Source of the DNA: an uncultured virus (IMG/VR IMGVR_UViG_3300033487_000001)
Taxonomy: Duplodnaviria; Heunggongvirae; Uroviricota; Caudoviricetes
Strand: one strand, 5' to 3'
DNA: 64,000 nt
IMG/VR virus record: IMGVR_UViG_3300033487_000001
Position numbers and translations under genes: made by a program. Below, piece after piece: positions 13,737-59,802 of this stretch (position 1 is its first letter; the number at the start of each line of letters is the position of its first letter). Below the pieces are notes generated by a model. That model ran no database searches. It was given only the letters and a program-made list of their open reading frames with translations, and was not told where the DNA came from.

Positions 13737-16198
13737 CTACGGAACGTCACGCACGCGGGCGTCGCCGACCAGGCCGCCGTCTTTCTTGTACTCGTGCGGC
13801 TCAAGCTTACGCAGGACATTCGCCCGCACCGTCATAAGCACGCCGGCGCCGCGTTCGGCCAGCGGCCTGGTCCCGTACGGGAAGCAGATCTCGACGCCCG
13901 GACGGTGGCTGTTTGTGAACAGGAATTCGTTCCCCTCGGCGTCGTACCAAGTCCAATAGTCTCCGCTCGCGTCTTCGACCAACTCGACGGCGTACACCTC
14001 GCGGTCCGTCGAACACGTCGACGTGAGCCACGCGTTCGGGTAGAAGCCGTACAGCACTCCAGCGTGTTTGTACGCGAAGAGCCGCTGCGTCTTCATGTTT
14101 CCTCTTCTGCGGCGGCTCTCTCCGGCGCCTCCACACGCGCCTCCGACGGCTGCTTCTGGGTCAGCCGCGCGATCTTCTCGCGGGCGATCGACGCCTCTTC
14201 TTCGTGCATGGCGAGCCGCATCGCCGTCGCGATGCGACGAGCCTCCGCGGCGTCCGGAATCGCCGGCACCTCGTCCACCTCGCACACCAGCACCAGGATC
14301 AGGCTGGCGATACGCACCGCGTCGAGCGGCAGCATGTCGAACGCCGCGTCGACCGCGCGGTTCTCCAGCTCGTCGTGACCGTCGTTGTCTAGGCGGATCA
14401 TCCGGTCAGCTCCGTCGCCGTCGCTCCAAGCAGCGACTCCGCGGCCGTCACCGTCTTTTCTGCCTTTTCCTTGGCCTCATCCGCGTTCCTAGCCTGCCTC
14501 CGAAACATCTCTCGGTATGCGGAGATTGCCTCGTCGACCAACCGGTCGACGTCGTCCCCATCGTGAATCAAGTATGACGTGTTAAGCGAGAATTGTTCAC
14601 CCGTATCGGTCTGGGTGAGGCAGATCTCGATGCGGCAATTATTCGACTTGGTATCTAGACACCCCAGGCGCAGCAGCGTCTTCAGTTTCACCAGCATCTG
14701 GTCCATGGTCGTGTCCTTTCGCGTGAGGTTCCGTCAGTTGTTGTCTGAAGCGTGCCCCTCCCACGCCGCGCGGTCCACCGTGAGCACGTACACCTCGTCC
14801 TGGACCAAGCAGATCAACAGCGTCTCGTTGGCCGAGATCTCTTCGAGCGCCGCGGTCACAGCGTCGCTGTCGTGGTCCAGCTGCTCCAGCAGGTCGAGCG
14901 CCACCTCTGGTGACCCGGTGAACACGGTCGGTTTGCCGTCAGGATCTCCTTCGGCGTAGCTCAGAGCCAGAGGAATGTAGTCCGGCGACGACTGGTCTAC
15001 GGCGAGGATCACGTGGCAGTCGCCTCGTACACCGCAGCAGGGTGTGTCGGAGGCGATCTCCGAGATCGCGGCGGCGATCATGTCGACGAGGGCTCGACAG
15101 CGTATGTCTTCGTCGGGCGTGTTGTCGGCGAGCATGTCCATGAACGCCTGCATGATTCGGTCGTCGTCGGCCATTCTTCTGTTGTACGCGGGTTCAGTCA
15201 TGGGCGCTAGGCGTCTCCGTTTACGGACGTGGTCGTTACTCCAGCAGGGCGAAGCGATAGGCGCGTGGTTTAGCGGATAGCCCGCATCGTCCCAGCATCG
15301 ACTCGAACACGCTGGTCACGGTCGGGCATGGAGCTTCGAGCGCGGCACTGGCTGGGAAATTACAAAAGCTCACGGCCTGCGCGAACGTGACAACCGATGC
15401 GTCTTGACACGACGCGACTAGTACGGCGTAGGCAGCACGAACACGGATGCGATGCGGGTCGCCTGGGTTCGGAGACACTCGGTACGCCGGCGCCGTTGAG
15501 TCATTTGCTCCAGGCGGAGACAGGATCGTCTCCGCCGGCGCGTACACTTCGGTGACGCCGTCAGGCATGAGGTATGTACCCGGCATCAAGAGGATCGATG
15601 CCGGTTGCGCGTCCGCTGCCGACATCGTCCGGGCGTACGCTATCGCTCCGTTGATCGTCGTGTGCAGCGCCGCGGACATGATAGAGTCGGCGATTCGCGG
15701 CGCGTCTGTCCATGGCATGCTGCCCGCCAGCATGGCGTCAATCGCATGACACGCCGCATCGATCGGCGCATGCAGGTCTGCCGGATACGAACGCTTCATC
15801 TGCGACAGTACGGCGCGCGCAAACGAGGTCCGGTTCGCCTCGAACAGCACTGCCGCCCGCATCTGGTCGTCGGCCGTTTCCCACCAGCGAAGCATCTCGG
15901 TCTGCATCGCGCGCTCTTCGACGCTGCTGCAGAGCAGTCGTCGCAGCGACTCCAAGCAGAACGCGCCGCGGTCGGGTGAAGGCCAAGCAGCTGCGTGCTC
16001 GCGCAATCCCATCTGCCGGAGCAGCTGCTTGAGGCCTGGTCTGGCGGCGTACGGGCGTGCGAGTATCCGCGCTACGCGACGGTCTTCCCGCACATCCATG
16101 GCAACAAAAGCAGCCTCGCACGCAGCCAGAACTAGCCTTCGCACGAGTGCGGTGGTGGGTTCTAGGGCGCATTCGGAGGCGCTCATTGTGGCGTCCAC
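13737..16198 (-). other. Five hypothetical genes (13737-14096, 14093-14401, 14398-14706, 14734-15201, 15236-16198)
   Basis: Consecutive co-oriented ORFs, some with ATGA overlaps; no recognisable motifs. Confidence 0.6.
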
Positions 16199-17037
16199 AG
16201 CTTCGCCAACTGATCGATCGCGCGTTTCGCCATCTCAAAAAACTCCTTGTCGCGTTCGATGCCGTGTGACTTGTAGCCGCACGCCTCCGCCGCCGCGATC
16301 GTCGAGCCGCTGCCCATGAACGGGTCCACGACGATGCCACGTCCCAGCGGCAACGACGCGCGGACGATCTGGCGCATGAACGCCTGCGGCTTGAGCGACG
16401 GGTGCGGCGCGATGACGCGCTCGATCTTGCCTGCAGGCTTCGACCTGATGACGTCCGTGAACGGACGCGCGAACGATTCGCGTCGCAGCGCGCCCGCGTG
16501 CCACACGCGCAGGTTCTGCGCCACGGTCGCCCCAGGGACCAGCGGCTTTCGAAAGACCCCCCACGGCTCCCACGCCGATCGAGGCATCACCGTCACGTCC
16601 GAGAATTCTTGCTCTGCCCCCTTGGGGCGATCGCCGCCGCGCAGGGTCTGGACCAGACGAACGACCTCGCCGCGCTTCTCGAACCCGCGCGACATCATGG
16701 CCCCGTAGACCAAGTGCGACACGATCGGGTTCGTTGCGACAAAGACGTGCCCTCCGGGCACCAAGGCGTGGATCGCCGCATCGGCGAAACGGGTGAACAT
16801 CAGCGTCATGTCGCCACGGTCTGAGTCGGACATGTCGGTAAACCTAGGCGTTGGAGCACGAACCACGCCACCAAGCGCCTGAGGCTGGCGCCACGCCCCG
16901 CCCCTCCCGGCACGCAGTTTATCGAGCTGATCGCTGGAGAATTCGCGCCCGTACGGTGGATCGGTCACGATCGCATGGATGGACGACGACATTTGGCGCA
17001 GCCATTCGATGCCGTCGGCGTGGTCGATTTTGTACAT
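16183..17037 (-). CDS. DNA amino-methyltransferase (N6-adenine/N4-cytosine, beta class)
   Basis: 'IVTDPPYG' (motif IV) precedes 'HPSLKP' and 'VVDPFMGSGST' (motif I); start at MYKIDHADG, since the ORF-track extension runs through the tRNA. Confidence 0.9.
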   Translation of the reverse strand: MYKIDHADGIEWLRQMSSSIHAIVTDPPYGREFSSDQLDKLRAGRGGAWRQPQALGGVVRAPTPRFTDMSDSDRGDMTLMFTRFADAAIHALVPGGHVFVATNPIVSHLVYGAMMSRGFEKRGEVVRLVQTLRGGDRPKGAEQEFSDVTVMPRSAWEPWGVFRKPLVPGATVAQNLRVWHAGALRRESFARPFTDVIRSKPAGKIERVIAPHPSLKPQAFMRQIVRASLPLGRGIVVDPFMGSGSTIAAAEACGYKSHGIERDKEFFEMAKRAIDQLAKLWTPQ

Positions 17038-17041
17038 GGGA

Positions 17042-17112
17042 CGACTCCGGCCGGATTCGAACCGGCGTAGACCGAGTTGAAAACGGTTGCTCTGCCACTG
17101 AGCGACGGAGTC
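17042..17112 (-). tRNA. tRNA with anticodon UCA (opal/UGA-decoding, probably Trp-like suppressor); CCA not encoded
   Basis: GACTCCG TC GCTC AGTGGCA GAGC A ACCGT TT-TCA-AC TCGGT CTAC GCCGG TTCGAAT CCGGC CGGAGTC G: 7-bp acceptor, 4-bp D stem, U33/A37, U31:U39 mismatch, 4-nt variable loop, canonical T loop, G73. Confidence 0.85.
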
Positions 17113-17161
17113 GAATGGGAGGCTATTCAGGCGGGATAGAAGAATTCGCTGGCCGGCTGAT

Positions 17162-17668
17162 TCAGAGGCGTTTGCCGCCGTGCCGATAGGGTCTGGTCTC
17201 GTTGTACGCCATTTTGCGGCGTACCTCGTCAGAGATGTCGATGCCCAGGCTGACGCCCAGGTCCAAAGCTCGGATGATGATGTCGGCCAACTCCGAGCCG
17301 AATCCCTCTGGCTTAAGGGACGCGTGGCTATCGTTGAACGCGTCGTACTCCACGAGCTCACCGCCTGGAGTCTTCACGTACGGTTTCTTGACGCTGAGAT
17401 TCGGATCCCGCAGTACCTCTAGCGCCTCCGAGGCCTCGGTGACGATCAGCATCAGTTTTGCCGCTGCATCGACGCCATCGGCCGCCTCGACTCGCCGGAC
17501 GAACTCCGCGTGCATCTTGTCGCGCAGATCCACTGGCAGGTCGTCTGGTTTGAACTTAGCAATCTCCCTCGCCAGAATGGCGTCGTCGTGCCAGCCGTGC
17601 TCCCACGAGTTCGAGTAGCACGACTCGGCGATGCTGCACAGTGCGTCGAATTCTTCGTGCAGGGTCAT
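17162..17668 (-). CDS. mazG: MazG-like nucleotide pyrophosphohydrolase
   Basis: 'KLMLIVTEASEALEVLR...KPEGFGSELADIIIRALDL...RKMAYNETRPYRHGGK' (ExxE...ELAD). Confidence 0.88.
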   Translation of the reverse strand: MTLHEEFDALCSIAESCYSNSWEHGWHDDAILAREIAKFKPDDLPVDLRDKMHAEFVRRVEAADGVDAAAKLMLIVTEASEALEVLRDPNLSVKKPYVKTPGGELVEYDAFNDSHASLKPEGFGSELADIIIRALDLGVSLGIDISDEVRRKMAYNETRPYRHGGKRL

Positions 17669-17943
17669 GTTTTGTCTCTCTCCTTGATCAGCTTCTGCCG
17701 TGCGTTGTCCTGGTCCCGCCACTCGCCCACGGACCGCAGCGAGCCCACGCGTGTGTCTCCGCTCTTGATGCGGTCGACAAAATCCTCCAGCCTGTCCGTT
17801 TGAGGTGACGCCGTGTTGCTGCGGATGTATTCCTCGGCATGCTCCACGAACCTGATCTCCGCCTCGCGCTTGCCGATCATCCATTCGAATCCTGTCGGCG
17901 GCATCGCGCCGAGCCCTCTGGTCGCACCTTTCCGATCGCTCAC
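17665..17943 (-). CDS. Hypothetical protein
   Basis: GTG start directly after, and in frame with, the TGA stop of the Pth2-like gene; ATGA overlap with mazG. Confidence 0.6.
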   Translation of the reverse strand: MSDRKGATRGLGAMPPTGFEWMIGKREAEIRFVEHAEEYIRSNTASPQTDRLEDFVDRIKSGDTRVGSLRSVGEWRDQDNARQKLIKERDKT

Positions 17944-18309
17944 TCAGCTCTCCTTTGCGTCTTGGTTATGTTCTGCAAAAGCTAAGCTCAATCCAGAACA
18001 GACCGATCCGGCCCGTACACTTGGGCACAACGCGATCGCGCCGAGCCTAGGAGTCAGGTCGTCATCGAAGAACGCTTCGAACCCACCGGCCTCCAGGAAT
18101 GAACGATTAGCGACGGTCAGCAGTTCATCGGTGTCACGCACCGACAGTATCACCACGACGCCGCATTGCTCTTCCCATCGCAGGGCATCCTGTGGATGCC
18201 GCATCGTCCAGGTCTGGGCCGCGTGCACAGCCTGCGCGGCTTGCGCGCCCGGCGACAAGTCACCGCGCACGACAATGTACATCTTCTGTGTCGGGTCGAA
18301 GTTATGCAT
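17944..18309 (-). CDS. Peptidyl-tRNA hydrolase, Pth2-like
   Basis: 'KMYIVVRGDLSPGAQAAQAVHAA...W...VVVILSV...FFDDDL...AIALCP' matches the Pth2 family pattern. Confidence 0.85.
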   Translation of the reverse strand: MHNFDPTQKMYIVVRGDLSPGAQAAQAVHAAQTWTMRHPQDALRWEEQCGVVVILSVRDTDELLTVANRSFLEAGGFEAFFDDDLTPRLGAIALCPSVRAGSVCSGLSLAFAEHNQDAKES

Positions 18310-18871
18310 CCTTCATCTCGTCTCGCGCTCGAAGCTGGCGCGCGGCCTCGGCGCATCCGGTGGCGGTTTTGATGTTCATGCGATTCAGCAGACCTTCTCG
18401 CCTGGAGCGCTCGTCCGCCTGTCGGCGCACGCGGACTTGGTCGATCCAAGCCAGACGCGCCAGTTCGCGCGCCGCGATTCGTTCCTGCGTCTCCGGAACG
18501 CTCAGCCACGCCTCGACGCGACGCCGCGTCTCCATCAACTCCGGCATAGACATCCCTTTGTAGATGTTGCCGTATGAAGACGTGTCGAACGCGACACCCT
18601 GCTCGACGCACATCACAATCGCTCCGATGTATGTCATCCACGGCGGCTCCTGCGACGCCGGCTCCGCCACGCGATACGGCACACCTCGCAGGAACGCGTA
18701 CGCGAGCATCAGCGCTCGCGTCGTGGGCGCCATTCGGCGTTGCCGGACGCAGGCGGCATGCCGCTCCTCGCCCGACAGTTTCTGGTTGGACTGCTCGACA
18801 GTGAGCGCGTGTGACGCAGCCGCCAGCTCGGCGATGCGAGCGCGAATCGATTGCAACTCTGACTTTTTCAT
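18302..18871 (-). CDS. Hypothetical protein immediately upstream of the Pth2-like gene
   Basis: Strong SD (CGGAGG); contains the motif 'RALMLAYAFLRGVPYRVAE'. Confidence 0.75.
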   Translation of the reverse strand: MKKSELQSIRARIAELAAASHALTVEQSNQKLSGEERHAACVRQRRMAPTTRALMLAYAFLRGVPYRVAEPASQEPPWMTYIGAIVMCVEQGVAFDTSSYGNIYKGMSMPELMETRRRVEAWLSVPETQERIAARELARLAWIDQVRVRRQADERSRREGLLNRMNIKTATGCAEAARQLRARDEMKDA

Positions 18872-18877
18872 GACTTT

Positions 18878-18964
18878 CCTCCGGTTACGAGTACAGACGA
18901 ATGGATTCTGTATCGATCAAGACGGAGGTCCGCGGACGCGAATTCAAAGATGCAGCGAGATCAT
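18878..18964 (-). promoter_or_regulatory. Candidate leader ORF MISLHL*IRVRGPPS* (18917-18964) with an SD-sequestering hairpin (18878-18928)
   Basis: ATG ATC TCG CTG CAT CTT TGA ATT CGC GTC CGC GGA CCT CCG TCT TGA; CCTCCG pairs with the downstream SD CGGAGG; inner stem CGA-TACAGA / TCTGTA-c-TCG. Confidence 0.6.
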
Positions 18965-19543
18965 TCAGGGAGAATGACACCGAATGCGCTCGCCGACAAG
19001 CGGGTCAACGAGCGCGTAGAACCTGTCCATCCATTCGTCTGCGGCATACTCCGCGCTCCAAGCCACGATCTGCTTGGGCATTGGATCCGGCATCGGGAAC
19101 CACTCCTCCGGAGACGGCCCCATCAGGTCTCGCTTCTCGGTGGCTAGAAGCGTCAGATCGACACGGTGGACTTCCGCGTGCAGGTGCGCGTCCTTCGGCA
19201 GGCCACACCACTCGTTGATCACGTTCTGCAGCACGTCGCAGGCCGCGACGTACCCCGCCATGCACGGATGGCGCTTGATGGGCGAGGGAATATCTTTGAA
19301 GATAAATTCGTGGGCGTCGTGCATGAGGGCCGCGAGCTTGTGCTCTGGCGCGGCGATGCGCGAACACAGCACGCTGTGTTGGGCGACCGTATACGTCTGC
19401 ACGCCTAGCGTCTGCTGCGCGAATCGCGTCTCGCGCAAACCCATGGCGATGTCGAGGAGACTGAGCATCTCTGCGCGAGGCTCCCACGCGTGGAACTTCA
19501 CGCCGGAGTAGGTCTGGGACCAGAGCTTGGCGATGTCGGTCAC
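18965..19543 (-). CDS. HD-domain phosphohydrolase (YfbR/YfdR-like 5'-deoxynucleotidase)
   Basis: 'QTYSG', 'YTVAQHSV', 'AALMHDAHE..KDIPSPIK', 'DLTLLATEKRDLM'. Confidence 0.88.
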   Translation of the reverse strand: MTDIAKLWSQTYSGVKFHAWEPRAEMLSLLDIAMGLRETRFAQQTLGVQTYTVAQHSVLCSRIAAPEHKLAALMHDAHEFIFKDIPSPIKRHPCMAGYVAACDVLQNVINEWCGLPKDAHLHAEVHRVDLTLLATEKRDLMGPSPEEWFPMPDPMPKQIVAWSAEYAADEWMDRFYALVDPLVGERIRCHSP

Positions 19544-19884
19544 AGCGCACCCGTGAGCATCGAGGTGACGCCGTCGTACTCGGCGACGCGCTTCGAGCGT
19601 TCCGCGAGGAACGCGTCGACGGCGTTCTTGACGGCGGATTGAATGTCGTCGCCGGTGCCGCGAGCGATCTCGTTGCTCTCCGGGCTCATGACCATTTGGT
19701 AGTCACCGGAGCCGATGTACAGGCTGGCGACGAACCTTGGTCCGTCGCCTTCTGCGGGCTCGTCACTGTCTCTGCCGTGCATGGCACAGCAGACGGACAC
19801 GCCCACGGGGTACAGGCCGCGGGAAGCCGGATGCGCGGCCAGCGCCCGCGCCACGTTCTTCATGAGTTCTTCGGTGGTCTTCAT
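19540..19884 (-). CDS. Hypothetical protein
   Basis: SD-preceded ATG (MKTTEELM); start-stop overlaps at both ends. Confidence 0.6.
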   Translation of the reverse strand: MKTTEELMKNVARALAAHPASRGLYPVGVSVCCAMHGRDSDEPAEGDGPRFVASLYIGSGDYQMVMSPESNEIARGTGDDIQSAVKNAVDAFLAERSKRVAEYDGVTSMLTGAL

Positions 19885-20186
19885 TGATTCTCCTTCGTAG
19901 GTTGGTCGGATATCACTCGCCTCAGCCGACGCTCTAGTCCGGACAGCATCAGCTCCTCGATCCGGCGAGCATCTTTGATCGCTTGCCGTCGGTACAGCTC
20001 TGCAATAACCGCCGCCAAGACCGACATGATTCCGAGCAGCAAGTACATATTGCGCGGGCCCCTCGGCATCTCGTGTGCGTAGGCCTCGGCGAACATGTAT
20101 GCCGCGGAGATCGCCATCGCGCCGATGGCCGTGCCATATCGCGCGGCGGCCCGCGTGCAATGTGTGATGGGCGTGTCCTGGCTCAT
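19881..20186 (-). CDS. Small protein with two predicted TM segments
   Basis: 'GTAIGAMAISAAYMFA' and 'MYLLLGIMSVLAAVIA' hydrophobic stretches. Confidence 0.55.
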   Translation of the reverse strand: MSQDTPITHCTRAAARYGTAIGAMAISAAYMFAEAYAHEMPRGPRNMYLLLGIMSVLAAVIAELYRRQAIKDARRIEELMLSGLERRLRRVISDQPTKENQ

Positions 20187-29204: not shown

Positions 29205-30188
29205 ATGAGCAAGTCGCTACTCACCCACTCGCGGCTCGCCGCCTTCCGCAGCTGTCCGCGGAAGCATCGGTACGCGTACGAGATGGGGTACCGGGCGCGC
29301 AAGCAGAGCATGGCGCTGCGGTACGGAACGCTGTTCCACAAGTGTGCGGAGGCGTACTGGCGGTGTCGCAAGGCCGGCGGCGATGCGTCGGCCGCGCTCG
29401 ACGCGGCCATCGCCGCGTTCGACGCCAACTCCTGGACGATCCAGGATCCGTACGTGGAGGTCTCGGCCCGCGCGCTTGTGCTCGCCTACTGCGTGCGCTG
29501 GAGCCAGCGCGACGTGACGGTGCTGGATGTCGAGCGTCAGTTTCGTACTCCGATGATCCATCCGCTTGGCGCGACCAGCGAGGACTTCGAGATGGGCGGA
29601 AAGATCGATCTGATGCTGCGGCTGGAGGACGGCCGCACTGCCGTGGTCGAGCACAAAACGAGTGCCATGGACGTGTCCCCCGGCAGCGACTACATCACAC
29701 GCCTTGCGATCGACGGGCAGGTGGATCAGTATCTGCTCGGCGCCGCGTCGCTAGGTTACGACGCCTCGGTCGTCGTGTACGACATCGCGAAGAAGACGGC
29801 GCTTAAGCCTTCGTTGGCGACGAAGAATCCGGTGCTCAAGAAGAACGGAGAGCCGCGCAAGGGCACGCGCATGCTGGACGAGACTCCGGAAGAGTACTAC
29901 GATCGTGTGATCGCGGACATCGCCGCCGACGTCGACGGGTATCTACGTCACGTTGAGCTGGGGCGGACCGACGACCAGGGCAGCTCGTATCGCTTCGATG
30001 TCTGGGCGTGGGGCGACAGGATTTTGGCCGACGCGGGCGACGGAGCGTCGCCGCGCAATCCAGACGCCTGCTTCCGCTACGGAAGCGCCTGCGAATACTG
30101 GCCGGTGTGCTCTCAGCGTGCTCGAATCGACGACGCGCGGCTGTTCGATCTCGCCGGTGCGCACGTCGAACTGAGAGAGGAAGAGTGA
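29205..30188 (+). CDS. PD-(D/E)xK exonuclease (RecB-like phage recombination nuclease)
   Basis: 'HSRLAAFRSCPRKHRY', 'GTLFH', 'GKIDLML...VVEHKTS', 'QVDQY', C-terminal 'CFRYGSACEYWPVC'. Confidence 0.88.
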   Translation: MSKSLLTHSRLAAFRSCPRKHRYAYEMGYRARKQSMALRYGTLFHKCAEAYWRCRKAGGDASAALDAAIAAFDANSWTIQDPYVEVSARALVLAYCVRWSQRDVTVLDVERQFRTPMIHPLGATSEDFEMGGKIDLMLRLEDGRTAVVEHKTSAMDVSPGSDYITRLAIDGQVDQYLLGAASLGYDASVVVYDIAKKTALKPSLATKNPVLKKNGEPRKGTRMLDETPEEYYDRVIADIAADVDGYLRHVELGRTDDQGSSYRFDVWAWGDRILADAGDGASPRNPDACFRYGSACEYWPVCSQRARIDDARLFDLAGAHVELREEE

Positions 30189-30463
30189 TGGCATACGACG
30201 ACGAGGAAGAGAATCTGTCGCAGCTGAATCGAGTTGGCGTGGCCGGCGTCACGGTGGGCCGCGTGGTCCACTACGTCGGCGGCACTCGCGAGCACCGACG
30301 CGTGCTAGCCGCGCTGGTCGTGTCCATCGATCCAGACGGCTATCCGAATCTCTTGGTGCATGGATATTACCTGCCCGACTCGGTGCACGAGCGGTATCAG
30401 CCGAGCGTGGTCTATTGTGAGCGGTACGCCGTCGGCTGCTGGTCGTATCCTCCGCGCGTTTAG
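30188..30463 (+). CDS. Hypothetical protein
   Basis: 'TVGRVVHYV...AALVV...NLLV...GCWSYPPRV'; start overlaps the preceding stop. Confidence 0.65.
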   Translation: MAYDDEEENLSQLNRVGVAGVTVGRVVHYVGGTREHRRVLAALVVSIDPDGYPNLLVHGYYLPDSVHERYQPSVVYCERYAVGCWSYPPRV

Positions 30464-30506
30464 CCGCGCGGTCTCACTTCGTGATCTCGAAACGAGAGGA
30501 GCCTGA

Positions 30507-31553
30507 ATGTCAGAGCCGTTCAATCCGTCCGCGCGCATCACACGCGGCAAGGTCGTGCAGCCGCTGCGCGTGCTGCTGCACGGTCCGCCGGGCGTGGGCA
30601 AGTCGACGTTTGGCGCGCAGGCGCCAAAGCCGTTCTTCGTCTGCGCCGAGGACAACTCGAACCACCTGAACGTGGCTGGGCGTTTCTGCCCGCGCAGCGA
30701 TCTGGTGCGTCAGCCTGACGGCTCCATCCAGAGCGGGTGGACGGAGGTGCTGGGCACGATCCGGTGGCTGCAGAATCCCGAGAACGAACCCGAGATGGGC
30801 ACGCTGGTGCTCGACACGATCGACTGGCTGGAGGCCATGGTCGTGGCCTACATCTGTGCGCGCGACAACGGCACGCCAGACCCCACGAGCCGCCGCTCGC
30901 GCACGCTGCTGGTCGACGGCAAGCCGCACATCAACGGCTACTCGTACGGAGGCGGGTGGGCCACCGCCCTGGAAGAGTGGCGCGTGCTGCTTGCGGAACT
31001 GGACCGGCTGCGCAAGATCCGTGGTGCGCACATCGTGCTGCTGGCCCACTCGGGAACCAACAAGGTGTCGAACGTGGAGGGGTTCGACTACGACCTGATC
31101 ACGCCGAAGATCAACAAGCTGGCTACCGGCCTCGTGGTCGAGTGGAGCGACGCGGTGCTCTACGCCGACTGGGAGCGCGTGATGATCCAGGCGCCCGGGG
31201 ACAATTCTCCCAAGGCCAAAATGAATGCGACTGGCAAGCGCATCGTCTACACGACACACGAGAACGCGCACATCGCGAAGGGCCGCGATCTGCCGCGCAT
31301 GCTGCCGCTCGAATGGGCGGCGTTCTACGAACACGCGCGGGCCGCGTTCACCGATCCCGTCAAGGCAGCGAAGCTGCGGGCGGACATCGACCTCGCGGTC
31401 GGCGAAGATGCCGAGCCGGCATTCAGGTCAACGGTGGACGCGACCGTAGCCAAGGCCGGCGACAACCTGCTTCAGCTGCAGAGAATCCACGACAAGCTCA
31501 TCGCAAAGAAGTCGACCAACGGCGCCGCCGCGACGGCGGCACCTGCACCATAA
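30507..31553 (+). CDS. Sak4-like AAA ATPase (phage recombination/annealing protein)
   Basis: 'HGPPGVGKSTF' Walker A, 'TLVLDTIDWLE' Walker B, 'YGGGW', 'LLAHS', 'EWSDAVLY'; lies between exonuclease and SSB. Confidence 0.85.
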   Translation: MSEPFNPSARITRGKVVQPLRVLLHGPPGVGKSTFGAQAPKPFFVCAEDNSNHLNVAGRFCPRSDLVRQPDGSIQSGWTEVLGTIRWLQNPENEPEMGTLVLDTIDWLEAMVVAYICARDNGTPDPTSRRSRTLLVDGKPHINGYSYGGGWATALEEWRVLLAELDRLRKIRGAHIVLLAHSGTNKVSNVEGFDYDLITPKINKLATGLVVEWSDAVLYADWERVMIQAPGDNSPKAKMNATGKRIVYTTHENAHIAKGRDLPRMLPLEWAAFYEHARAAFTDPVKAAKLRADIDLAVGEDAEPAFRSTVDATVAKAGDNLLQLQRIHDKLIAKKSTNGAAATAAPAP

Positions 31554-31562
31554 AGGACGAAC

Positions 31563-32186
31563 ATGACCGAATTCAATCTCGCCACAGCTCCGTACGGAAA
31601 GTTCAACTGGACCGGCAAGCCCACGGCGATTCAGTACGCCAAGGCGTCGACCGGCAACGCTCACTTCGTCGTGAGCTTCACCGGAAAGACTCATACCGGC
31701 GAGGATTTCTCGAAGGACAAGGGTCTATTCTTCACCGAGAAGACGATCGATCGCACCCTGGAAGCGCTCGAAGTTCTGGGTATCGAGCTGAATCTCGACG
31801 GAGACCTTGACGCGCAGCTCATCACGCTGACCAGCGGCGCCGTCACCCTGCCGGACAAAGAAGTGCGGCTCGCCGTAGAGATCTTGGACAAGGAGCAATA
31901 CGACGAAAATCGCAACCCGAAGGTCGGGCCGGACGGCAAGGTTCTGGTCACCAAGACCTTGGAAATCGCCTTCATCAATCGCCCCGGCGGGTTCAACGTG
32001 GTGCAGATGACGACCGCGGATGCGAACGCGCTTTCTGGTCTCATCAAGGCGGCTGCTGCGCGCAAGAAGCTGACTGGTGGCGCGCCCGCGCCGTTGGCCA
32101 ACACCATGAACGGCGCGAACGGCGCAGCTCGGTCCGTCGCGCCACCTGTCGCGCAGGTGCAGGTCGACGACGACATTCCGTTCTGA
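31563..32186 (+). CDS. Single-stranded DNA-binding protein (phage type)
   Basis: Acidic C-terminal tail 'DDDIPF'; follows the Sak4-like gene. Confidence 0.75.
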   Translation: MTEFNLATAPYGKFNWTGKPTAIQYAKASTGNAHFVVSFTGKTHTGEDFSKDKGLFFTEKTIDRTLEALEVLGIELNLDGDLDAQLITLTSGAVTLPDKEVRLAVEILDKEQYDENRNPKVGPDGKVLVTKTLEIAFINRPGGFNVVQMTTADANALSGLIKAAAARKKLTGGAPAPLANTMNGANGAARSVAPPVAQVQVDDDIPF

Positions 32187-32246
32187 GACACGCGCTCGTC
32201 CGTAACTGGGGGAGAACCGGTCGCGCACTCGTGGTATGCTGCGTGT

Positions 32247-32855
32247 ATGCCGCGAGTGATAGTGGTGCGGCCGGTTCGCGCCTCTGACAATCCAACCTAC
32301 CAGCAGTCGTACGGTCCATATCTATGGCTCGGTGCGGCTGCGGCCGTTGCGGCGTGGTTTCTGCTGAGGTCACGCTGGCGTGCGGATGGTTCGTCCGCGG
32401 CTGTATTGCCAAGCGTTCCACCTCATCAGATATCGGCAAGTGCGGCGCCGGGCGGGTCTCGGATGCCGGAATTTCTTGCTTACAATTCCGAGCCCGCGTG
32501 GGTTTCGTCGGGCACGCCGTTGACACAGCTGCTGTACCGAGACGCGGGCGCTGCGGCGATTTTCTATCTGCAGTCCATGCTCTATTCGTCGCGCCACGCG
32601 ACACCGGCGCCAGACGGTCGCTGGTCTAGTTCGTGGGGAGCGACCATGCTACGCGTGTCAGAGGGCGTGGATCTGCCGCCCGGCGTCGTGCCGGGTACGT
32701 TCGGCGCAGAGGTCTACGTCGTGTCGACGCTGTCGCGCCTGGCGGCGCTGAGAACGCTGCCGTTTTCGCTGCCGCAGCCGCTGCTCGATGCGATCAACGC
32801 ACAGGCGCACCGCGCGTATCCGTACGCGGCGGTCGTGCAGGCGAGGGCGTCGTAA
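32247..32855 (+). CDS. Single-TM protein, possible virion membrane protein
   Basis: TM 'YLWLGAAAAVAAWFLLRSR'; preceded by TGGTATGCT-N6-ATG. Confidence 0.6.
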   Translation: MPRVIVVRPVRASDNPTYQQSYGPYLWLGAAAAVAAWFLLRSRWRADGSSAAVLPSVPPHQISASAAPGGSRMPEFLAYNSEPAWVSSGTPLTQLLYRDAGAAAIFYLQSMLYSSRHATPAPDGRWSSSWGATMLRVSEGVDLPPGVVPGTFGAEVYVVSTLSRLAALRTLPFSLPQPLLDAINAQAHRAYPYAAVVQARAS

Positions 32856-33493
32856 TGGCCAGCTGGATCGAGCGTTATCCGTGGTGGTTTATGGGCGGCG
32901 TCGTGGGCGCGACGCTGTTGCTGGCGCGCATACCCTTCGGCAGCGACGAGGCGCCCGCGCTCGTTGCCACGCCGTCGGTCGGCCGAGTGACTCCTCCCGG
33001 ACCGGAATATGAGCGCCAGCATCTGCCGGCTCCGCCTGCGAATTACTGTGAATTCGTAAGGTCGACGCGAGACCTGCTGGCGCGTATCGGTCTGACCGGT
33101 CCCGGCGCCGATCTGTTCATCGCCCACCTGGGACGAGAGAGCGGATTCGGTCGCACTGTGTACAATTACAACTGGGCCAACATCAGGTCATTTGCGGGGT
33201 CCGACGCGCCGTGGTATCGCGGCGTGACCGGGTATCCGTTTCGCTCGTACATGAGCGCGGCCGAAGGGATGCGCGCGATGGTGGACCTGATAGCGCGTCC
33301 CGGAGGGCGATACGCGCCGGCCTGGGCCAAGCTCCAGGCCGGAGACGTGACGTGGTACGCCACGCTGGGGGTGCTCGGCTACTACGAGGTCAAGGACGCG
33401 AACGACCGGTGGGTGGCCGCGACGCCGGACAACGTAGGGCCGTCGCAGGCTGACTACGAGATCTCGCTGCGCAGCGTGAGGCGCTGCCGGTAA
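32855..33493 (+). CDS. N-terminally anchored lysozyme-fold peptidoglycan hydrolase (GH73/FlgJ-like)
   Basis: 'AHLGRESGFG...YNWANI...FRSYMSAAEG...RYAPA...LGYY'; N-terminal TM 'WWFMGGVVGATLLLA'. Confidence 0.7.
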   Translation: MASWIERYPWWFMGGVVGATLLLARIPFGSDEAPALVATPSVGRVTPPGPEYERQHLPAPPANYCEFVRSTRDLLARIGLTGPGADLFIAHLGRESGFGRTVYNYNWANIRSFAGSDAPWYRGVTGYPFRSYMSAAEGMRAMVDLIARPGGRYAPAWAKLQAGDVTWYATLGVLGYYEVKDANDRWVAATPDNVGPSQADYEISLRSVRRCR

Positions 33494-34080
33494 TGGTCAC
33501 GCCCGCACAGCTGTCGTTCCGCCGCCAATACGGATGGCATCCGCCGGCCGACCTGCTGGCGAGCGCGCAGGCGAATACGTGGCGCGGTGACCCGCAGCCG
33601 ACGGATCCGGCACAGCGGCCGATCGGTGCGGGCGTGCGTCGGCTGGAGCGCTACGTGCGGACGAAGTTTCCGCTGGTCTGGCACGTGTACGATCGCGGGC
33701 CGTCGCCCGACGAGCCGCATGATCCATCGATGCACTACGCCGGCCGCGCGTTCGACGCGATGATCCGGACGATCGGCGGCCTGCCGGATCGACGCGGCGA
33801 CGAGGTGGCGAACTGGCTGCTCGCGCACGCGCGAGAGCTCGGCATCCAGTACATGATCTGGTCGGGAACGCAGTGGTCGAGCGCCACGGGACGCACGAGC
33901 GTGTATCCTGGTTCCGATGACCACGTAAACCACATTCACGTGGATATGACCGTGCCGGCGGCGCTCGGGCATCTGCCGTGGCCGCCTCGTGAGGGCGGTG
34001 GCGGTTCCGGCGTGATGTGGGTCGTCGCTGCGTCGGCGGGGGCGTGGTACCTGTGGCGCAAGAAGAGGAAGCATGGCTAG
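33493..34080 (+). CDS. Zinc peptidase of M15/Hedgehog-like fold with C-terminal TM
   Basis: 'SMHYAGRAFD' (HxxxxxxD), 'IQYMIW', 'HVNHIHV' (HxH); C-terminal 'MWVVAASAGAWYLWRKKRK'. Confidence 0.75.
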   Translation: MVTPAQLSFRRQYGWHPPADLLASAQANTWRGDPQPTDPAQRPIGAGVRRLERYVRTKFPLVWHVYDRGPSPDEPHDPSMHYAGRAFDAMIRTIGGLPDRRGDEVANWLLAHARELGIQYMIWSGTQWSSATGRTSVYPGSDDHVNHIHVDMTVPAALGHLPWPPREGGGGSGVMWVVAASAGAWYLWRKKRKHG

Positions 34081-34381
34081 GCCGTCGCTGGACAAGATAG
34101 GCGAGATGTTCGATCGGCAGGTCGCGGCGATCACGCCGCGGCTCGGCGCTCGCCGCGCGCAGGCTATTGCCGCCGCGCACATACACCAGAAGTACCCCGG
34201 CGCTCTCCAGGCGCTCAAACGGCGTGCGAAGCGCGATCGCGCGGCCGGAAGACGCCAGAACCCATGCGGGTGCAGTGGCCGCATGGCCAACCCGAACGGT
34301 CTCGTGGGGCGCATCATCCGCCGCAATCCGGCGCCGTCGTGGACATGGCTGCGGGTGGACATAGTGGGTGTCTGGCGCTAA
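34073..34381 (+). CDS. Small basic protein with repeated xxNP motifs
   Basis: RRQNP, RMANP, IRRNP. Confidence 0.55.
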   Translation: MARPSLDKIGEMFDRQVAAITPRLGARRAQAIAAAHIHQKYPGALQALKRRAKRDRAAGRRQNPCGCSGRMANPNGLVGRIIRRNPAPSWTWLRVDIVGVWR

Positions 34382-34391
34382 GCTCCCGGCC

Positions 34392-34622
34392 ATGAGCAAG
34401 CTCTTCGTGACCGACACGTGTCCCGGCTGCACCCGCGTGAAGACCGCCCTCGCCCAGCGCCCCGACGTGGCGCAGTACGTCGTGATCCGACACGCCGACA
34501 AGGATCCGGTGGCTCAGAAAGAGCTGCTGGCGCTCGGTGTGCGGGTCGTTCCGACCCTGCTCACCTCGGACGGCCGCGTGATCACGAACGACGTCGCGAT
34601 CAAGCGCGAGCTGGGGCTGTAG
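34392..34622 (+). CDS. Glutaredoxin/NrdH-like redoxin
   Basis: 'TDTCPGCTRVK' and 'GVRVVPTL'. Confidence 0.8.
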   Translation: MSKLFVTDTCPGCTRVKTALAQRPDVAQYVVIRHADKDPVAQKELLALGVRVVPTLLTSDGRVITNDVAIKRELGL

Positions 34623-34907
34623 CCCGTGTCGGTCAACGCCAGTCTGCGGTCCGTGACGATGGATGCGCTGCACGCCGCGCTCGGCTGCGACCGTGCCGCG
34701 CAGAACACTCAGCATGCCGCCGAGGTGATCGCCTGTCTGTGCGAGGCCGTCTTGGTCGACCAAGAGTTCGGCAACCGGCTCTTGGCAATCGGCCGGCTGA
34801 ACGAGGATATGGGTTACTTGGCCAGGGCTAAGCACTTGGATCCAGCCTCGATGGAACAGATCTTCACCGAGTCAGTGGAGCGCTTCAAACAGGCACGGAA
34901 GTAGCCC

Positions 34908-35699
34908 GTGCGTCTCGCGTGGGCCACGGACATCCACTGGAACTTCGCGCGGCCGGAGGCCAAGGAGCGCTTCTTCGCGCAGCTGGTCACGGCGAAGGCG
35001 GACGCGCTGCTTCTGACCGGAGACAACGCCGAGGCACCGTCGTACGTGTCCGCGCTGCAGGAGTTGCGCGACACGAGCGGTCTGCAGGTGTACCACGTCG
35101 CGGGCAATCACGACTTCCATGGGTCTAGCATCGCCGTCCTGCGCGGCACGACACTGGCTGGAGACGGCGGCTATCTGACCAATCGCGTGTGCGCGGTGGA
35201 GTTCGGCGGCTACTCGCTCGCCGGCGTCGACGGTTGGTACGATGTGACGCACGGTCGCGGCGATCGCAGTCCCGTGATGCTGGCCGACTTCTCGTACGTC
35301 ACAGATCTCATGGTTCCGCACGCCGAGCGCGTACGGCGCCTGCGCCGGGTCGCTCGGCGCGACGCAGAACGCCTGTCCGATCAACTCTCCAAAGCCCGTT
35401 CGTCCAAGATTCTGGTGGCGCTGCATGTGCCGCCTTTCCCCGGCGCAGCATGGCACATGGGCAAGCTGAGCGACGCGGACTTCGTACCGTACTTCTCGTC
35501 GTCCGCTACGGGCGACGCGTTGGCGGACTACGCGCGCGCTCATCCTGGTGTCGAGTTGCTGGTGCTGTGCGGGCACTGCCATTCGTCTGGCTCGTATCGT
35601 CACGCGCCTAATCTTCGCGTGCTGACGGGGCACGCGACGTATGGGCATCCTGAGATCCAAGGCATCATCGTAGACGGAACCACGTTCGAGGCGCTCTGA
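34908..35699 (+). CDS. Calcineurin-like metallophosphoesterase
   Basis: 'TDIH', 'TGD', 'AGNHD', 'HVPP', 'CGHCH'. Confidence 0.9.
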   Translation: MRLAWATDIHWNFARPEAKERFFAQLVTAKADALLLTGDNAEAPSYVSALQELRDTSGLQVYHVAGNHDFHGSSIAVLRGTTLAGDGGYLTNRVCAVEFGGYSLAGVDGWYDVTHGRGDRSPVMLADFSYVTDLMVPHAERVRRLRRVARRDAERLSDQLSKARSSKILVALHVPPFPGAAWHMGKLSDADFVPYFSSSATGDALADYARAHPGVELLVLCGHCHSSGSYRHAPNLRVLTGHATYGHPEIQGIIVDGTTFEAL

Positions 35700-36486
35700 G
35701 CCAACGTACCACTGGAGGGTCGCCGTGATTCTGGAAGTCGACAAGGTCACCAACCAAGGCCTCATCGCGTTCGCGCTGACACGCTCGCTCGTCTCGCTCG
35801 CGCCGTGCCCGCGCAACGCGCGTGCGCTTGCGCATCTGTGCGAATCGCTGATGGTGCTAGACGAACCGGCGTCCGATGCGCTGAACGGAGACATGGTGCC
35901 GGAGATTGCGCGGTGGCTCAGGAGCAGCCGTGAGTCGCTGGAGTCGGCAGCGGAGGCCGACGACGCGCGGCTGATCGCCGCCGCCATGCGGCGGTGCGCC
36001 GAGGCGTACGCGTCACTCTGTATCGCGGCGGGCGTCGGAGCCGCCGTCAAACAGGCGGCCTCTGTGTCGGACATATCCGAGGAAGAGTTTGTGGAAGCTC
36101 TGCGCGCGTACGTTCCCAAACCGAAGAACTAGACCCGCTCGACTTTGGCGTACCGCCTAACGCGGGCTACGTGTTTTTTGTTGGGGACCCAACCGTCAGG
36201 TCGGTCGCGAGCGACCGACTCGGTCATCCGCTCGACCGCCGATTCCACGCTACAGTCCGGTGCGTCGCCGCAGCAAAACGAATACACCTCGTCCTCGCCC
36301 CACGACTGCAAGATTGGCACTGGGACCTGCATGTAGATACACACCGTGACCACGCGAGACAGGCGTGCGCCAAGCCTTCGGCGTGTGCGGAAGGCCATGC
36401 CCGGATAGTCTCCTTCTGGCATGCGTATGCATACCTCTCGCGTCTCCAGCCACACCTCGTCGTCGAACGGCTTGAAGCGTTCGTCG

Positions 36487-37347
36487 CTAGTACCTTGTTC
36501 CTCGGTCGGTCGCTCGTCCGCTAACCAGCGGCGCCAAGCCTCTGTCCTGCATGACGTCCCGGATGTCCATGACTCCACGTCCCGCCACGTCCATCGTGGC
36601 TCGGACGAGTCTGACTCCGTGGGAGTAGTCGCGGTATCCGGCGCTGTGGACGGTTGAATATGGCTGCAGTGGCCATCTACCCGTGTCTGGGTTGAGCGCG
36701 CCATAGATTACGATCCTTCCTGGAGCAGACGAATCGGCGGTCAGGATATTCTTTTTGTGGCCGTCGACGATGCCGGTGCGGCGGGCGATCGACGCCACGA
36801 TTCGCGCGTTGGTCGCGACGTACGTGCTCACGGCGTCTCGGTTGGTTGCCGCCGCGGCCATGCGCACCTTCACGTCCGCCGTTGCCTGTATCGCGTCGGC
36901 CACCTTCTGCGTCGGTAGCACGGCGCCGTACAGTTCGGCGATGCGCTGGGCGGTAGCCGGCATGACCGGCCAGCGGACCCAGTCGGCGTCGTTGCCGACG
37001 CCCCAGAAGTCTGGGGCCACGTAGATCGTGCCGCTCAGCGCGCCCGCGGACACCGGTACCGGTTTCCAGTCTGCGACGCCAGCCGGCGTGGCGCCGGCCT
37101 GCGCCGCGAGCAGCGCCGCCGCGTCACGCTGTGTGTCGCTGAGTCCGCGTACGGCGCTGGCGAAGTCGGCGCCGGACATGCCTCTGGCGATTTGAAGTCC
37201 GGTTGTGCTCATGGCGTTGTCCTGGACGATGCGCGGCGCGGCCGGCGCTGACGATGGAGGCGTGGCGGCGACGGACGCACCGGGTCGCGTCAGCAGGTAG
37301 AGCGCGCCGGCTCCGAGTGCCAGCCATATCGCCGTTTTCTGGGCCAT
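36487..37347 (-). CDS. N-terminally anchored protein of unknown function with enzyme-like His-rich motifs
   Basis: TM 'IWLALGAGALYLLTRP'; 'GHKKN', 'IYG', 'QPYSTVH', 'YRDYSHGVRLV'. Confidence 0.7.
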   Translation of the reverse strand: MAQKTAIWLALGAGALYLLTRPGASVAATPPSSAPAAPRIVQDNAMSTTGLQIARGMSGADFASAVRGLSDTQRDAAALLAAQAGATPAGVADWKPVPVSAGALSGTIYVAPDFWGVGNDADWVRWPVMPATAQRIAELYGAVLPTQKVADAIQATADVKVRMAAAATNRDAVSTYVATNARIVASIARRTGIVDGHKKNILTADSSAPGRIVIYGALNPDTGRWPLQPYSTVHSAGYRDYSHGVRLVRATMDVAGRGVMDIRDVMQDRGLAPLVSGRATDRGTRY

Positions 37348-51397: not shown

Positions 51398-51895
51398 GTC
51401 TCTTGTTGGTCGGCTAGCTTACCCAGGGCAGCGAGCTCCCCGCGGAACAGATCTTCGCCCTCAACGAGCAGGTCTCTCATATCACCGGCGTCGCATCCTT
51501 CGCACCACGCGTGCAGACTGGCGAGCAGGTCGACCAACAAGGCTGCGCGCGTAGGGTATGACGCCTTGGTGCTGCTTCTGAAAGCGTCGATCGCTGCTTT
51601 CGCGTCGATCGAACGACGCTCGGCTGCCGCTTGGATCGCCGACAGGCGATCGGATATGGGTACTCCGCATGATTTTGTCTGGTTCATGAAAGTCGAGTTT
51701 TGCACCGGTAGAACAAAGTGTCAATGTTCTACTTCGCTGGTCTCAGAAGGGGCCTTCTGTTTCCAAGCGAAAAAGAAAACGTTCAATGTCATGAAATGTA
51801 TGTGGATCTACTGAGCCGTTGGTGCCGCGTCCGCTCCGCCGTTGCCGCGTGGCGTCCGCGCCGCATTGCGGGCATACTCCTCAGTCGGAGGATTC

Positions 51896-52876
51896 GTGGG
51901 TACAGAAATCGTGGTGGCGGTCGAGGCCGCGGACCTATGCGCGGCGAGCGAACTGGCGCCGCTGGACACCAATCCAGCGGCGATCTACCTCGGCTCGCTC
52001 GGTTCCGAGGTGTCGCGCGACACCATGCTGGCCGCGCTGGCGCAGGCCGCGGCGTTCTTCTCGGGCACCGACTTGGCGCAGGTCGCCGACCGGAAGCGAT
52101 TCGTGTTCGCGTTTCCGTGGCACATGCTGCGATACCAGCACGTCCAGAAGCTGCGCGCGGACATGGGGGCGCGCTACGCCCCCGCCACGATCAACAAAAC
52201 GCTCGCTGCGGTGAAGCGGGTGGCGGTCGAGTGTCGCCGGCTGGGGACCATGAGCGCCGACGACGCGGCGGCGATTGGTCAGGACGTGCCGCCGGCGCGT
52301 GGCAGCCGGACGCACCGTGGACGCGCCCTGTCGGCGATCGAGGTGCAGTCGTTGCGCGAGGCGTGCGCTGCGAGCGCCGCCGGGGAGCGCAACCGGTTCC
52401 TGCTGGAGCTGTTGTTGGCCACGGGCATCCGCCGGGCCGAGGCCGCGTCACTCACGCTGGGGTCCCTGCGCGTGGATGCCAAAGAGCTGACCGTCATGGG
52501 CAAAGGCAACAAGCAGCGCATGGTGCCCATGAGCGGCTCGCTGTGCGACGCGCTGGCCAGGTGGCTGCAGACTCGCGGCACGACGCCTGGCCCGCTGCTC
52601 TGCAAGTCGACGACGTCGGGAACCCTGCTGCTCGGCAAGCGCATGACCGGCGGGGCCGTGTTTTCGTTGATGCGCCGTCTGGCGAGCCGGGCCGGCGTGG
52701 CGGGGCTGGGGCCGCACGATTTCCGCCGCACGTTCGCGTCGACGCTCATGGACAAAGGCGTTGATATCAAAACGGTTTCGCGCCTGCTTGGACACAGCTC
52801 GGTGACCACGACCGAGAAGTACGACCGCAGGCCAGAACGGGCGATGCGCGAGGCAGTTGAGAAGCTGGGGATGTAA
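51896..52876 (+). CDS. Tyrosine recombinase/integrase
   Basis: 'TGIRRAE', 'GKGNKQR', 'HDFRRT', 'LLGHSSVTTTEKY'; GGAGG SD before the GTG at 51896. Confidence 0.92.
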   Translation: MGTEIVVAVEAADLCAASELAPLDTNPAAIYLGSLGSEVSRDTMLAALAQAAAFFSGTDLAQVADRKRFVFAFPWHMLRYQHVQKLRADMGARYAPATINKTLAAVKRVAVECRRLGTMSADDAAAIGQDVPPARGSRTHRGRALSAIEVQSLREACAASAAGERNRFLLELLLATGIRRAEAASLTLGSLRVDAKELTVMGKGNKQRMVPMSGSLCDALARWLQTRGTTPGPLLCKSTTSGTLLLGKRMTGGAVFSLMRRLASRAGVAGLGPHDFRRTFASTLMDKGVDIKTVSRLLGHSSVTTTEKYDRRPERAMREAVEKLGM

Positions 52877-52912
52877 ACAGATGCATGAATCCATGGAAGG
52901 AGCGCGTGTGGC

Positions 52913-53770: not shown

Positions 53771-53955
53771 CTGACTGCGGGTTATACTGAACAGAAGTAC
53801 AGCGTATTGTGTTTCCTCGCATCCGCCTACATCAAAAAAACCTAACGTTTTCGACTGCTTGAAAAAATCGACTTCTCGGCCTTGCCATCCAACGGAGGAG
53901 GTCCAGATTGCTTGGTGTCGGTGGCCAGATGGGGCCTCGGCGGGAGGATACGACG

Positions 53956-59436: not shown

Positions 59437-59465
59437 TTGCGCCATGTGGATTGGCGCCGTATGAT
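59437..59465 (+). promoter_or_regulatory. Sigma70-like promoter upstream of the KGG gene
   Basis: TTGCGC, 17 nt, TATGAT. Confidence 0.45.
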
Positions 59466-59518
59466 CCACCTGTCGAGGTCATCGACGAGCCGCGATGCGG
59501 CTACACGAAAGGCACATC

Positions 59519-59767: not shown

Positions 59768-59771
59768 AGAT

Positions 59772-59802
59772 GCGAATCCGCTGCGGATAACAGCGGATTC
59801 GC
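59772..59802. terminator. Perfect 12-bp hairpin between convergent genes
   Basis: GCGAATCCGCTG / CAGCGGATTCGC. Confidence 0.6.

Follow-up and report, generated by a model that had tools for sequence, protein, structure and literature searches.

A putative readthrough-sensing leader of the arrest-peptide type in an uncultured virus, with a stop codon matched to the virus's own suppressor tRNA

The 64,000 nucleotides of DNA analysed here (the window in the following) belong to an uncultured virus of the Caudoviricetes (IMG/VR record IMGVR_UViG_3300033487_000001). On their minus strand a short open reading frame (ORF) is interrupted by an in-frame UGA, resumes into Arg-Gly-Pro-Pro and is closed by a second UGA shortly before a gene of an unnamed protein family; the same run of genes includes a tRNA with the anticodon UCA, i.e., of the opal suppressor type (Table 1). 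To what would such an interrupted leader respond, and which genes would it control? A preliminary description had proposed a switch that turns on a whole run of downstream genes when termination at UGA fails, either because release factor 2 (RF2) is scarce or because the opal tRNA is active. Comparing the locus with its relatives, we come to a narrower reading. We think it likely that the region 18878–18964 is a translated leader which reports whether the phage opal-suppressor tRNA decodes UGA, and the gene behind it is probably made only when the phage's own stop-reading tRNA works.

The leader extends from 18964 to 18917 and reads ATG ATC TCG CTG CAT CTT TGA ATT CGC GTC CGC GGA CCT CCG TCT TGA, that is MISLHL-stop-IRVRGPPS-stop with 14 codons. 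Its ATG directly abuts the TGA of the upstream HD-domain gene. The two proline codons, CCTCCG (18928–18923), are the exact reverse complement of the Shine–Dalgarno (SD) sequence CGGAGG (18883–18878), which is located 6 nucleotides (nt) 5′ of the ATG at 18871. All this is exactly as described before, and the minimum free energy (MFE) fold of the leader also reproduces the proposed hairpin, with the outer helix 18928–18923/18883–18878 and an inner stem. HD gene, leader and next gene are all in one frame, with 93 nt from the leader ATG to the gene ATG. The +1 frame from CTT-TGA is, as claimed, open for 76 nt up to a TGA overlapping the ATG of the gene (ATGA); this ending is a consequence of leader and gene being in one frame. 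An ATG straight after a stop, as at the junction of HD gene and leader, is unremarkable by itself, and it is only the comparison with related loci that makes the arrangement in the window more than a chance find.

Searches at the DNA level gave no match, neither for the 48-nt leader string among viral contigs nor for the region 16000–20000 among GenBank phages. A word-index search with the 189-amino-acid (aa) protein returned 5 relatives, and a full HMMER pass with a 39-row profile returned 4440 cluster representatives (E ≤ 1e-3), 2181 of them with E ≤ 1e-10. With the profile 14 viral and 39 metagenome loci were fetched; 6 of them were duplicates, leaving 47 distinct loci and, with the window, 48. 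When R[GSAP]PP was scored, 28 of these 48 loci, the window included, turned out to have R-(G/A/S)-P-P in register 5′ of the family gene. The layout consists of an ATG-started mini-ORF of 2–12 codons, a single in-frame stop, a codon for Ile, Val or Leu, 1–9 more codons and the motif (RxPP in the following). In the relatives, Leu or Trp behind an aromatic residue often closes the mini-ORF. Between the last PP codon and the start codon of the gene there are 45–61 nt in 28/28 loci; the next stop 3′ of the motif is found 4 to more than 100 codons away in the relatives and is not matched in type. The in-frame stop, the RGPP-type motif and the stem between anti-SD and SD are thus conserved upstream of homologs in many loci.

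The remaining 20 loci comprise 8 that end at contig ends, 8 with shorter stop-gated variants and 4 that are unclear. Among the shorter variants are MTGFT-stop-MP-stop, right behind a tRNA gene, and MKAFFL-stop-VFRPP-stop, and in L005 the family gene itself has a TAG at codon 3. In 10 of 21 loci a sigma-70-like promoter ends 5–10 nt 5′ of the mini-ORF ATG, compared to 0.7% of random positions, and this spacing suggests a leaderless or near-leaderless message in these loci (listed in Table 1). We also considered the gate stop with its following codon as the −10 box of a second promoter and rejected this idea, as it explains neither the frame linkage nor the match to the tRNA described below.

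Two constraints appear to act on the motif. In 25 loci the arginine is encoded by CGC (11), CGT (8), CGA (2), AGG (2) and AGA (2), and the second residue by GGN (17), GCN (6) and TCN (2) with varying wobble positions. Arginine is kept across CGN and AGR codons, which a motif in the RNA cannot explain, and the motif must therefore be selected as a peptide. On the other hand, the first proline codon is CCT in 21/25 loci, high-GC loci among them, and this bias fits complementarity to the SD as a second constraint. In 25 of 28 loci the MFE fold has the SD paired with the PP codons or beside them, and the extensions of this helix vary in sequence from locus to locus. We compared the duplex energies of each locus' own 5′ and 3′ arms with those of non-cognate combinations in 5000 permutations. 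Cognate duplexes had a mean of −17.4 kcal/mol versus −9.75 kcal/mol after swapping, and 0 of 5000 permutations was as low. Thus, both earlier proposals, an arrest-class peptide motif and proline codons that serve as the anti-SD arm, hold among the relatives, and the two arms of the stem co-evolve.

A link between leader and tRNA comes from the identity of the interrupting stop. For this count 23 RxPP loci were used; L050 was dropped as a near-copy of L014, and L043, L024, L051 and L038 were set aside. In the frame of the motif the nearest upstream stop is 2–10 codons away in 23/23 loci and at most 7 codons away in 22/23, versus medians of 13 and 10 codons in the two control frames. In 14 of 14 loci this stop and the anticodon of the neighbouring suppressor tRNA correspond, comprising TGA/UCA, TAA/UUA and TAG/CUA pairs (Table 1), compared to 1/14 in control frame 1 and 4/14 in control frame 2 (label permutation, p = 6e-5). 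The window is an opal case in a high-GC phage. By eye, the match extends to 9 more loci with leaders of the shorter classes. A maximum-likelihood tree of 30 family proteins shows 8 changes of the stop type, at least 4 of which are imposed by branches with good support, so that a single inherited accident does not account for the match. The proposed tie between an in-frame gate and the element's own opal tRNA is supported by this comparison; its restriction to UGA and RF2 does not hold, as relatives use TAG or TAA. As the stop always follows the phage's own tRNA, the input would be the net suppression by this tRNA and not a general termination stress.

Of the 48 distinct loci, 28 have a suppressor-type tRNA in the vicinity of the family gene, counting the window and L038, whose loop was re-read; many of the loci with no such tRNA nearby are short contigs. 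ARAGORN called one in most loci of sufficient length, and the anticodons are CUA, UCA, UUA or 8-nt loops holding UCA or CUA. In L003 the tRNA is located 5 kb downstream in a 427-kb record, in L013 it was found by Rfam and missed by ARAGORN, and L029 also carries one. The anticodon loop of the window tRNA reads UUUCAAC and is closed by a U-U mismatch. Several of the suppressor-type tRNAs have anticodon loops of 8 nt instead of 7 (AUUUCAAC, ACUUCAAA, AUUCUAAC; sites in Table 1), and the anticodons of these are given by ARAGORN as 4 or 2 bases long. The family gene is also present in two cultured phages, Stenotrophomonas phage DLP5 and Agrobacterium phage OLIVR1, where it stands beside a CUA-type tRNA and behind a shorter leader, in which an in-frame TAG is followed by the end K-P-P-stop; stop and anticodon again match by eye. 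In DLP5 the annotated tRNA-Sup-CTA lies directly 3′ of the family gene, and the annotated start of gp070 may be too far upstream. The tRNA of OLIVR1 is annotated as tRNA-Val, yet its anticodon loop reads CCCUAA.

How might such a leader work? Ribosomes would enter MISLHL by re-initiation at the ATG abutting the HD TGA or by readthrough of this TGA. Without suppression they would terminate at the UGA 18946–18944, too far upstream to disturb the stem, and 18302–18871 would be left untranslated. The gate stop is at least 2 codons 5′ of the arginine, and therefore a terminating ribosome should not reach the helix. If the UCA tRNA decodes the UGA, the ribosome would continue four codons into Arg-Gly-Pro-Pro and would stall there as at peptides of the ApdA/ApdP type; its footprint, with the proline codons in the P and A sites, would keep the 5′ arm open. 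The freed SD would then admit ribosomes to the downstream gene and also to the Pth2-like gene, which begins inside the regulated gene with an overlap of 8 nt. Translation of both genes is likely coupled through this overlap, and therefore one leader could govern both. We infer that the leader is translated, read through and stalled upon, that the SD is released, and that suppression turns expression on and not off.

Leaders of a related kind are known. RGPP and RAPP are described in the available parts of two studies as the most robust arrest motifs, tolerating varied and short N-terminal contexts and being resistant to elongation factor P, and RSPP as partly permissive (PMC12992588, PMC10987492). 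The motifs found here (RGPP, RAPP, RSPP) are the very set which these papers, in their available text, call arrest-competent. As in the leaders of ApdA, ApdP, RQH and SecM (RAGP), so far as the accessible portions of the reports describe them, a short upstream ORF has R-(A/G)-P-P at its end or close to it (PMC7897499, PMC10987492, PMC12992588, PMC10951233), and again as in this class a stem hides the SD of the next gene and a stall at the proline codons would open it. On the contrary, the peptide encoded here has 12–20 residues with neither a signal nor a membrane segment, the putative input is the passage of an in-frame stop instead of the pulling force of secretion, and the regulated gene belongs to an unknown phage family, whereas those leaders are found, according to the same portions, upstream of sec/yidC and other genes. 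The available text of the arrest studies does not mention phages (PMC12992588, PMC10987492) or suppressors (PMC12992588). A stop inside a leader peptide that makes downstream expression dependent on a suppressor tRNA has been engineered, with UAG and unnatural amino acids, as a transcriptional control (reviewed in PMC6412442, available part). This synthetic switch works by terminating transcription in the manner of tna/trp and contains neither an RxPP stall nor an SD stem, whereas the leader considered here is natural and would act on translation. Our full-text searches, confined to the articles themselves, found no literature joining arrest peptides with suppressor tRNAs and no published description of this stop-gated leader control. 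We consider the kind of leader as known, the RAPP/RGPP arrest leader, and its input as what appears to differ: it is probably a readthrough sensor of this type, matched to the phage tRNA.

The preliminary description also tied the leader to termination stress. In a rival reading of this kind the leader would report low release-factor activity at UGA in general, and the phage tRNA would be incidental. Readthrough is a competition between release factor and tRNA, hence the release-factor level must influence the output, and the window has CUU-UGA before its RGPP. This sequence recalls the autoregulation of prfB, the gene of RF2, which uses a +1 frameshift at CUU UGA C. Here, as in prfB, an early in-frame UGA makes expression dependent on the efficiency of termination at this stop. 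Nevertheless, the stop type follows the local anticodon in all 14 loci, across TGA, TAG and TAA; a TAA gate (L012, L037) would require both release factors to fail; and a suppressor-type tRNA stands beside the family gene in more than half of the loci. A pure RF2 signal is accordingly improbable to us. A prfB-like +1 shift, by which ribosomes would cross the hairpin up to the TGA at the gene ATG and turn the gene on by coupling, is less probable still and, we believe, hardly tenable. The open +1 frame of the window speaks for it; yet a CTT precedes the stop in only 2 of 25 loci, 12 of 25 have a +1 frame free of stops up to the gene start, no SD-like element stands upstream of the CTT-TGA in the window, the UGA is followed by A and not by the C of prfB, and a frameshift would skip the conserved RGPP codons. 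Neither the slippery codon nor the +1 frame is thus conserved, and unlike in prfB the product is not a release factor and the relatives have TAG or TAA.

A further explanation is an ordinary arrest leader whose phage translates the stop as sense throughout late infection; the leader would then respond to some other input, for example downstream products that release the stall. Stop-recoded phages with suppressor tRNAs are known (bioRxiv 10.1101/2021.08.26.457843, available part), the late genes of the window element lie beyond our view, and the Pth2-like gene of L003 has an in-frame TGA inside a conserved block. We give this explanation only a small chance: a stop of the matched type 2–10 codons 5′ of RxPP in every one of the 23 loci is not what chance codon use would yield, and both the window and a 137.5-kb relative (G001) end genes with the stop of the gate. 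In the accessible text of the preprint the modules of recoded phages contain suppressor tRNA, aminoacyl-tRNA synthetase and release factor upstream of the lysis genes, and a phage suppressor tRNA is proposed to time genes with in-frame stops, which resembles our proposal; standard-code phages holding suppressor tRNAs are noted as well, and no leader, arrest peptide, sensor or hydrolase is described (bioRxiv 10.1101/2021.08.26.457843). In contrast to the recoded phages, genes in the window end in TGA. No gene for an aminoacyl-tRNA synthetase or a release factor was noticed in the window, where no systematic search for them was made. Finally, a chance mini-ORF next to an untranslated SD-masking hairpin or RNA thermometer would suit the energy of the window hairpin, which lies within the range of shuffled sequences, and the fact that CCUCC is complementary to any SD. 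This explanation has next to nothing in its favour beyond that, for the arginine is kept by CGN and AGR codons, mini-ORF, stop and RxPP are linked by a common frame, the type of stop agrees with the tRNA, and no Rfam cis-regulatory family is found in 16000–20000 at E ≤ 1, where the scan gave only the tRNA and two rows far below threshold.

Several points weigh against the suppression-sensing leader that we prefer. Taken alone, the window hairpin (64 nt, −17.4 kcal/mol) is ordinary, with z −1.16 and 19 of 200 shuffles equal to it. The mini-ORF of the window has no SD and no sigma-70-like promoter in its upstream region, and therefore it could be translated only by coupling at the HD stop or if readthrough occurred twice. 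No consensus structure was obtained with RNAalifold from a MAFFT alignment of 25 leaders; this null result is due to 3′ arms that are not aligned by column, for which reason the arm-swap test was used instead. The 14 matched pairs are not independent, though at least 4 of the switches are. Of 40 loci with enough upstream DNA, 4 have no recognisable leader; in L038 the ATG-started mini-ORF is in another frame than RGPP, and L024 lacks RxPP. The nascent chain at the stall would comprise about 13 residues, so that the model presupposes the arrest of a very short natural peptide. The late genes lie outside the window, and TGA might possibly be recoded there.

Whether the gate stop has its standard meaning can be judged in part from the genes themselves. 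TGA is the commonest stop in the window, ending 45 of 84 crude ORFs, and reading 8 window ORFs through their TGA gave, by eye, no plausible continuation. The crude ORFs at 1–30000 end almost all in TGA, those at 30000–37000 and 52000–64000 mostly in TAG or TAA; one possible reason for this regional usage is that some expression classes avoid the suppressible stop. In G001 a TAG separates the RecE-like and RecT-like ORFs and ends other family-matched genes, its long ORFs contain no internal TAG, whereas the coverage by crude ORFs in the test with TAG as a sense codon, 0.673 versus 0.688, carries no information. The terminase family PF03237 gave no match in five related records. These phages thus appear to keep a suppressor tRNA yet end genes in its stop, and therefore a device that measures suppression would be sensible.

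Which genes belong to the leader? In 25 of 47 distinct loci tblastn places a Pth2-like gene 3′ of the family gene, mostly right in front of the tRNA, so that regulated gene, Pth2-like gene and suppressor tRNA recur as a three-part module. The HD gene is beside the family gene in one other locus (L041, tblastn), and MazG, the 92-aa ORF and the methyltransferase have no tblastn match in any of the 47 related loci. Control of the whole gene run, as first proposed, is thus not borne out: of its genes, the unknown one and the Pth2-like one alone recur together with the leader. The Pth2-like gene has a gate of its own in 11 of 25 loci, where it starts with ATG and 1–3 codons, followed by an in-frame TAG (codons 3–5) and a KLY(I/V)(I/V)xR block; in L003 (L003:4578-4883) a TGA is inside the conserved block. 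In 5/5 loci with known tRNA this N-terminal stop matches the tRNA. Gene callers would miss or truncate such genes. The PF01981 match of the window protein covers profile positions 2–67 of 115 only, and the protein is far below the cut-offs of the NCBIfam equivalogs. It reads F-F-D-D-D and G-A-I-A, compared to F-R-E-P-D and T-A-I-A, which are nearly invariant in the relatives, a sign of possible divergence or weakening. The interval between the family gene and its Pth2-like partner varies: L030 has an ECF-type sigma factor there (L030:3306-3818), and five loci have a 185-aa protein (phrog_14850, E 1e-70 to 1e-107) that is far better conserved than its neighbours. A few kb upstream of the family gene transfer-messenger RNA (tmRNA) genes are present in L008 (471–934) and L013 (186–549).

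The members of the regulated family have in common the motif LLAYAFLRGxPYxxxE and an MKKSEL-like N-terminus. A fusion of HD protein, leader and family protein by triple readthrough was considered as the main product and discarded, as the homologues start at an MKKSEL-type N-terminus behind their own SD. No family match was obtained with Pfam and PHROGs for 39 members or with NCBIfam for the window protein, and none among GenBank phages for the window protein and one relative. The AlphaFold (AF2) model of the 189-aa protein is all-helical with a predicted local distance difference test (pLDDT) of 93.5. Foldseek of this model against the PDB gave no match at E ≤ 1e-3, the PDB sequence profile gave nothing, and the search of the ESM Atlas nothing usable; in the VIA-align wide comparison only the long C-terminal helix matches coiled coils (Z 6.8), and the structural matches in BFVD are uncharacterised phage proteins only. 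The predicted complex of the regulated protein with the Pth2-like protein scored 0.05.

The identities given beforehand for the neighbouring genes (Pth2-like, MazG-like, UCA tRNA, methyltransferase, HD) hold in scans with Pfam, PHROG, ARAGORN and Rfam. The window contains genes for replication and recombination together with an integrase and no structural genes; given the integrase gene, the element may be temperate or integrative.

Table 1. Positions of the features of the window (numbered as in the whole stretch) and lists of related loci (locus handles followed by positions within the locus)
Feature	Position or loci	Strand	Evidence and remarks
HD-domain deoxynucleotide phosphatase-like gene	18965-19543	-	phrog_318, E 6.4e-45; TGA 18967-18965
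Mini-ORF MISLHL, leader part 1	18947-18964	-	read from sequence
Candidate gating UGA, in frame, 3 codons 5′ of the RGPP Arg	18944-18946	-	sequence and relatives
Leader part 2, IRVRGPPS	18920-18943	-	RGPP codons 18934-18923
Second UGA, closing the leader after RGPPS, in the frame of the downstream gene	18917-18919	-	sequence
Putative SD-sequestering hairpin	18878-18928	-	predicted fold and relatives; outer helix 18928-18923 (Pro-Pro codons)/18883-18878 (SD CGGAGG), inner stem 18915-18907/18897-18888
Putatively regulated gene, 189 aa, motif LLAYAFLRGxPYxxxE	18302-18871	-	all-helical (AF2 model); unnamed family, thousands of relatives
Pth2-like hydrolase gene	17944-18309	-	PF01981, E 3.5e-6, 27.7 bits (cut-off 23); phrog_1866, E 4.4e-15
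92-aa ORF	17665-17943	-	not conserved with the module
MazG-like pyrophosphatase gene	17162-17668	-	below Pfam cut-off; phrog_3301, E 4e-26; not conserved with the module
tRNA, anticodon UCA, opal suppressor type	17039-17113	-	ARAGORN; Rfam RF00005, 61.9 bits
N6/N4 DNA methyltransferase gene	16183-17037	-	Pfam/PHROG matches; not conserved with the module
Tyrosine-integrase gene	51842-52876		phrog_1, E 3e-44
TGA/UCA pairs	window, L003, L027, L028, L011		
TAA/UUA pair	L012		
TAG/CUA pairs	L002, L009, L013, L018, L030, L035, L042, L046		8 loci
Promoter-like TTGACA-17-TAnnnT	L003, L012, L019, L022, L027, L035, L037, L049, L002, L016		
tRNAs with 8-nt anticodon loop	L028:973-1048, L041:347-417, L029 near 2805-2885, L048:238-310, L033:389-460		
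DLP5 locus (L068)	NC_042082 49700-50350		
OLIVR1 locus (L069)	NC_055840 40270-40920		
Pth2-like genes with early TAG	L009, L013, L014/L050, L019, L032, L039, L042, L044, L046, L049		L014 and L050 are near-copies
185-aa protein, phrog_14850	L009:3289-3837, L013:3281-3829, L042:1251-1808, L046:602-1156, L022:3631-4194		

The arrest-peptide leaders known so far respond to secretion, membrane insertion, small molecules or antibiotics. If the leader works as suggested, arrest peptides would gain a new input, namely a tRNA that decodes a stop codon. This would help to explain how phages with suppressor tRNAs, including the precursors of recoded phages, notice a changed reading of stops in their host. 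One may go further and see in the unknown gene, the Pth2-like hydrolase and the suppressor tRNA a widespread self-measuring readthrough module of standard-code phages, in which the leader gauges the tRNA against the host release factor and the products limit the suppressor or clear the damage of readthrough, so that readthrough is held at a set level or is timed. We regard this extension as rather unlikely. If it is true, the products might hydrolyse the charged or the peptidyl form of the suppressor, and the module would be a natural homeostat for ambiguity of the genetic code and a possible stepping stone to full recoding of a stop codon. In addition, the leader offers a handle on two unstudied families, the unnamed family with about 4400 representatives and the phage Pth2-like hydrolase, both tied to suppression by their own gating, and it is a possible natural part for reporting suppressor-tRNA activity in genetic-code engineering.

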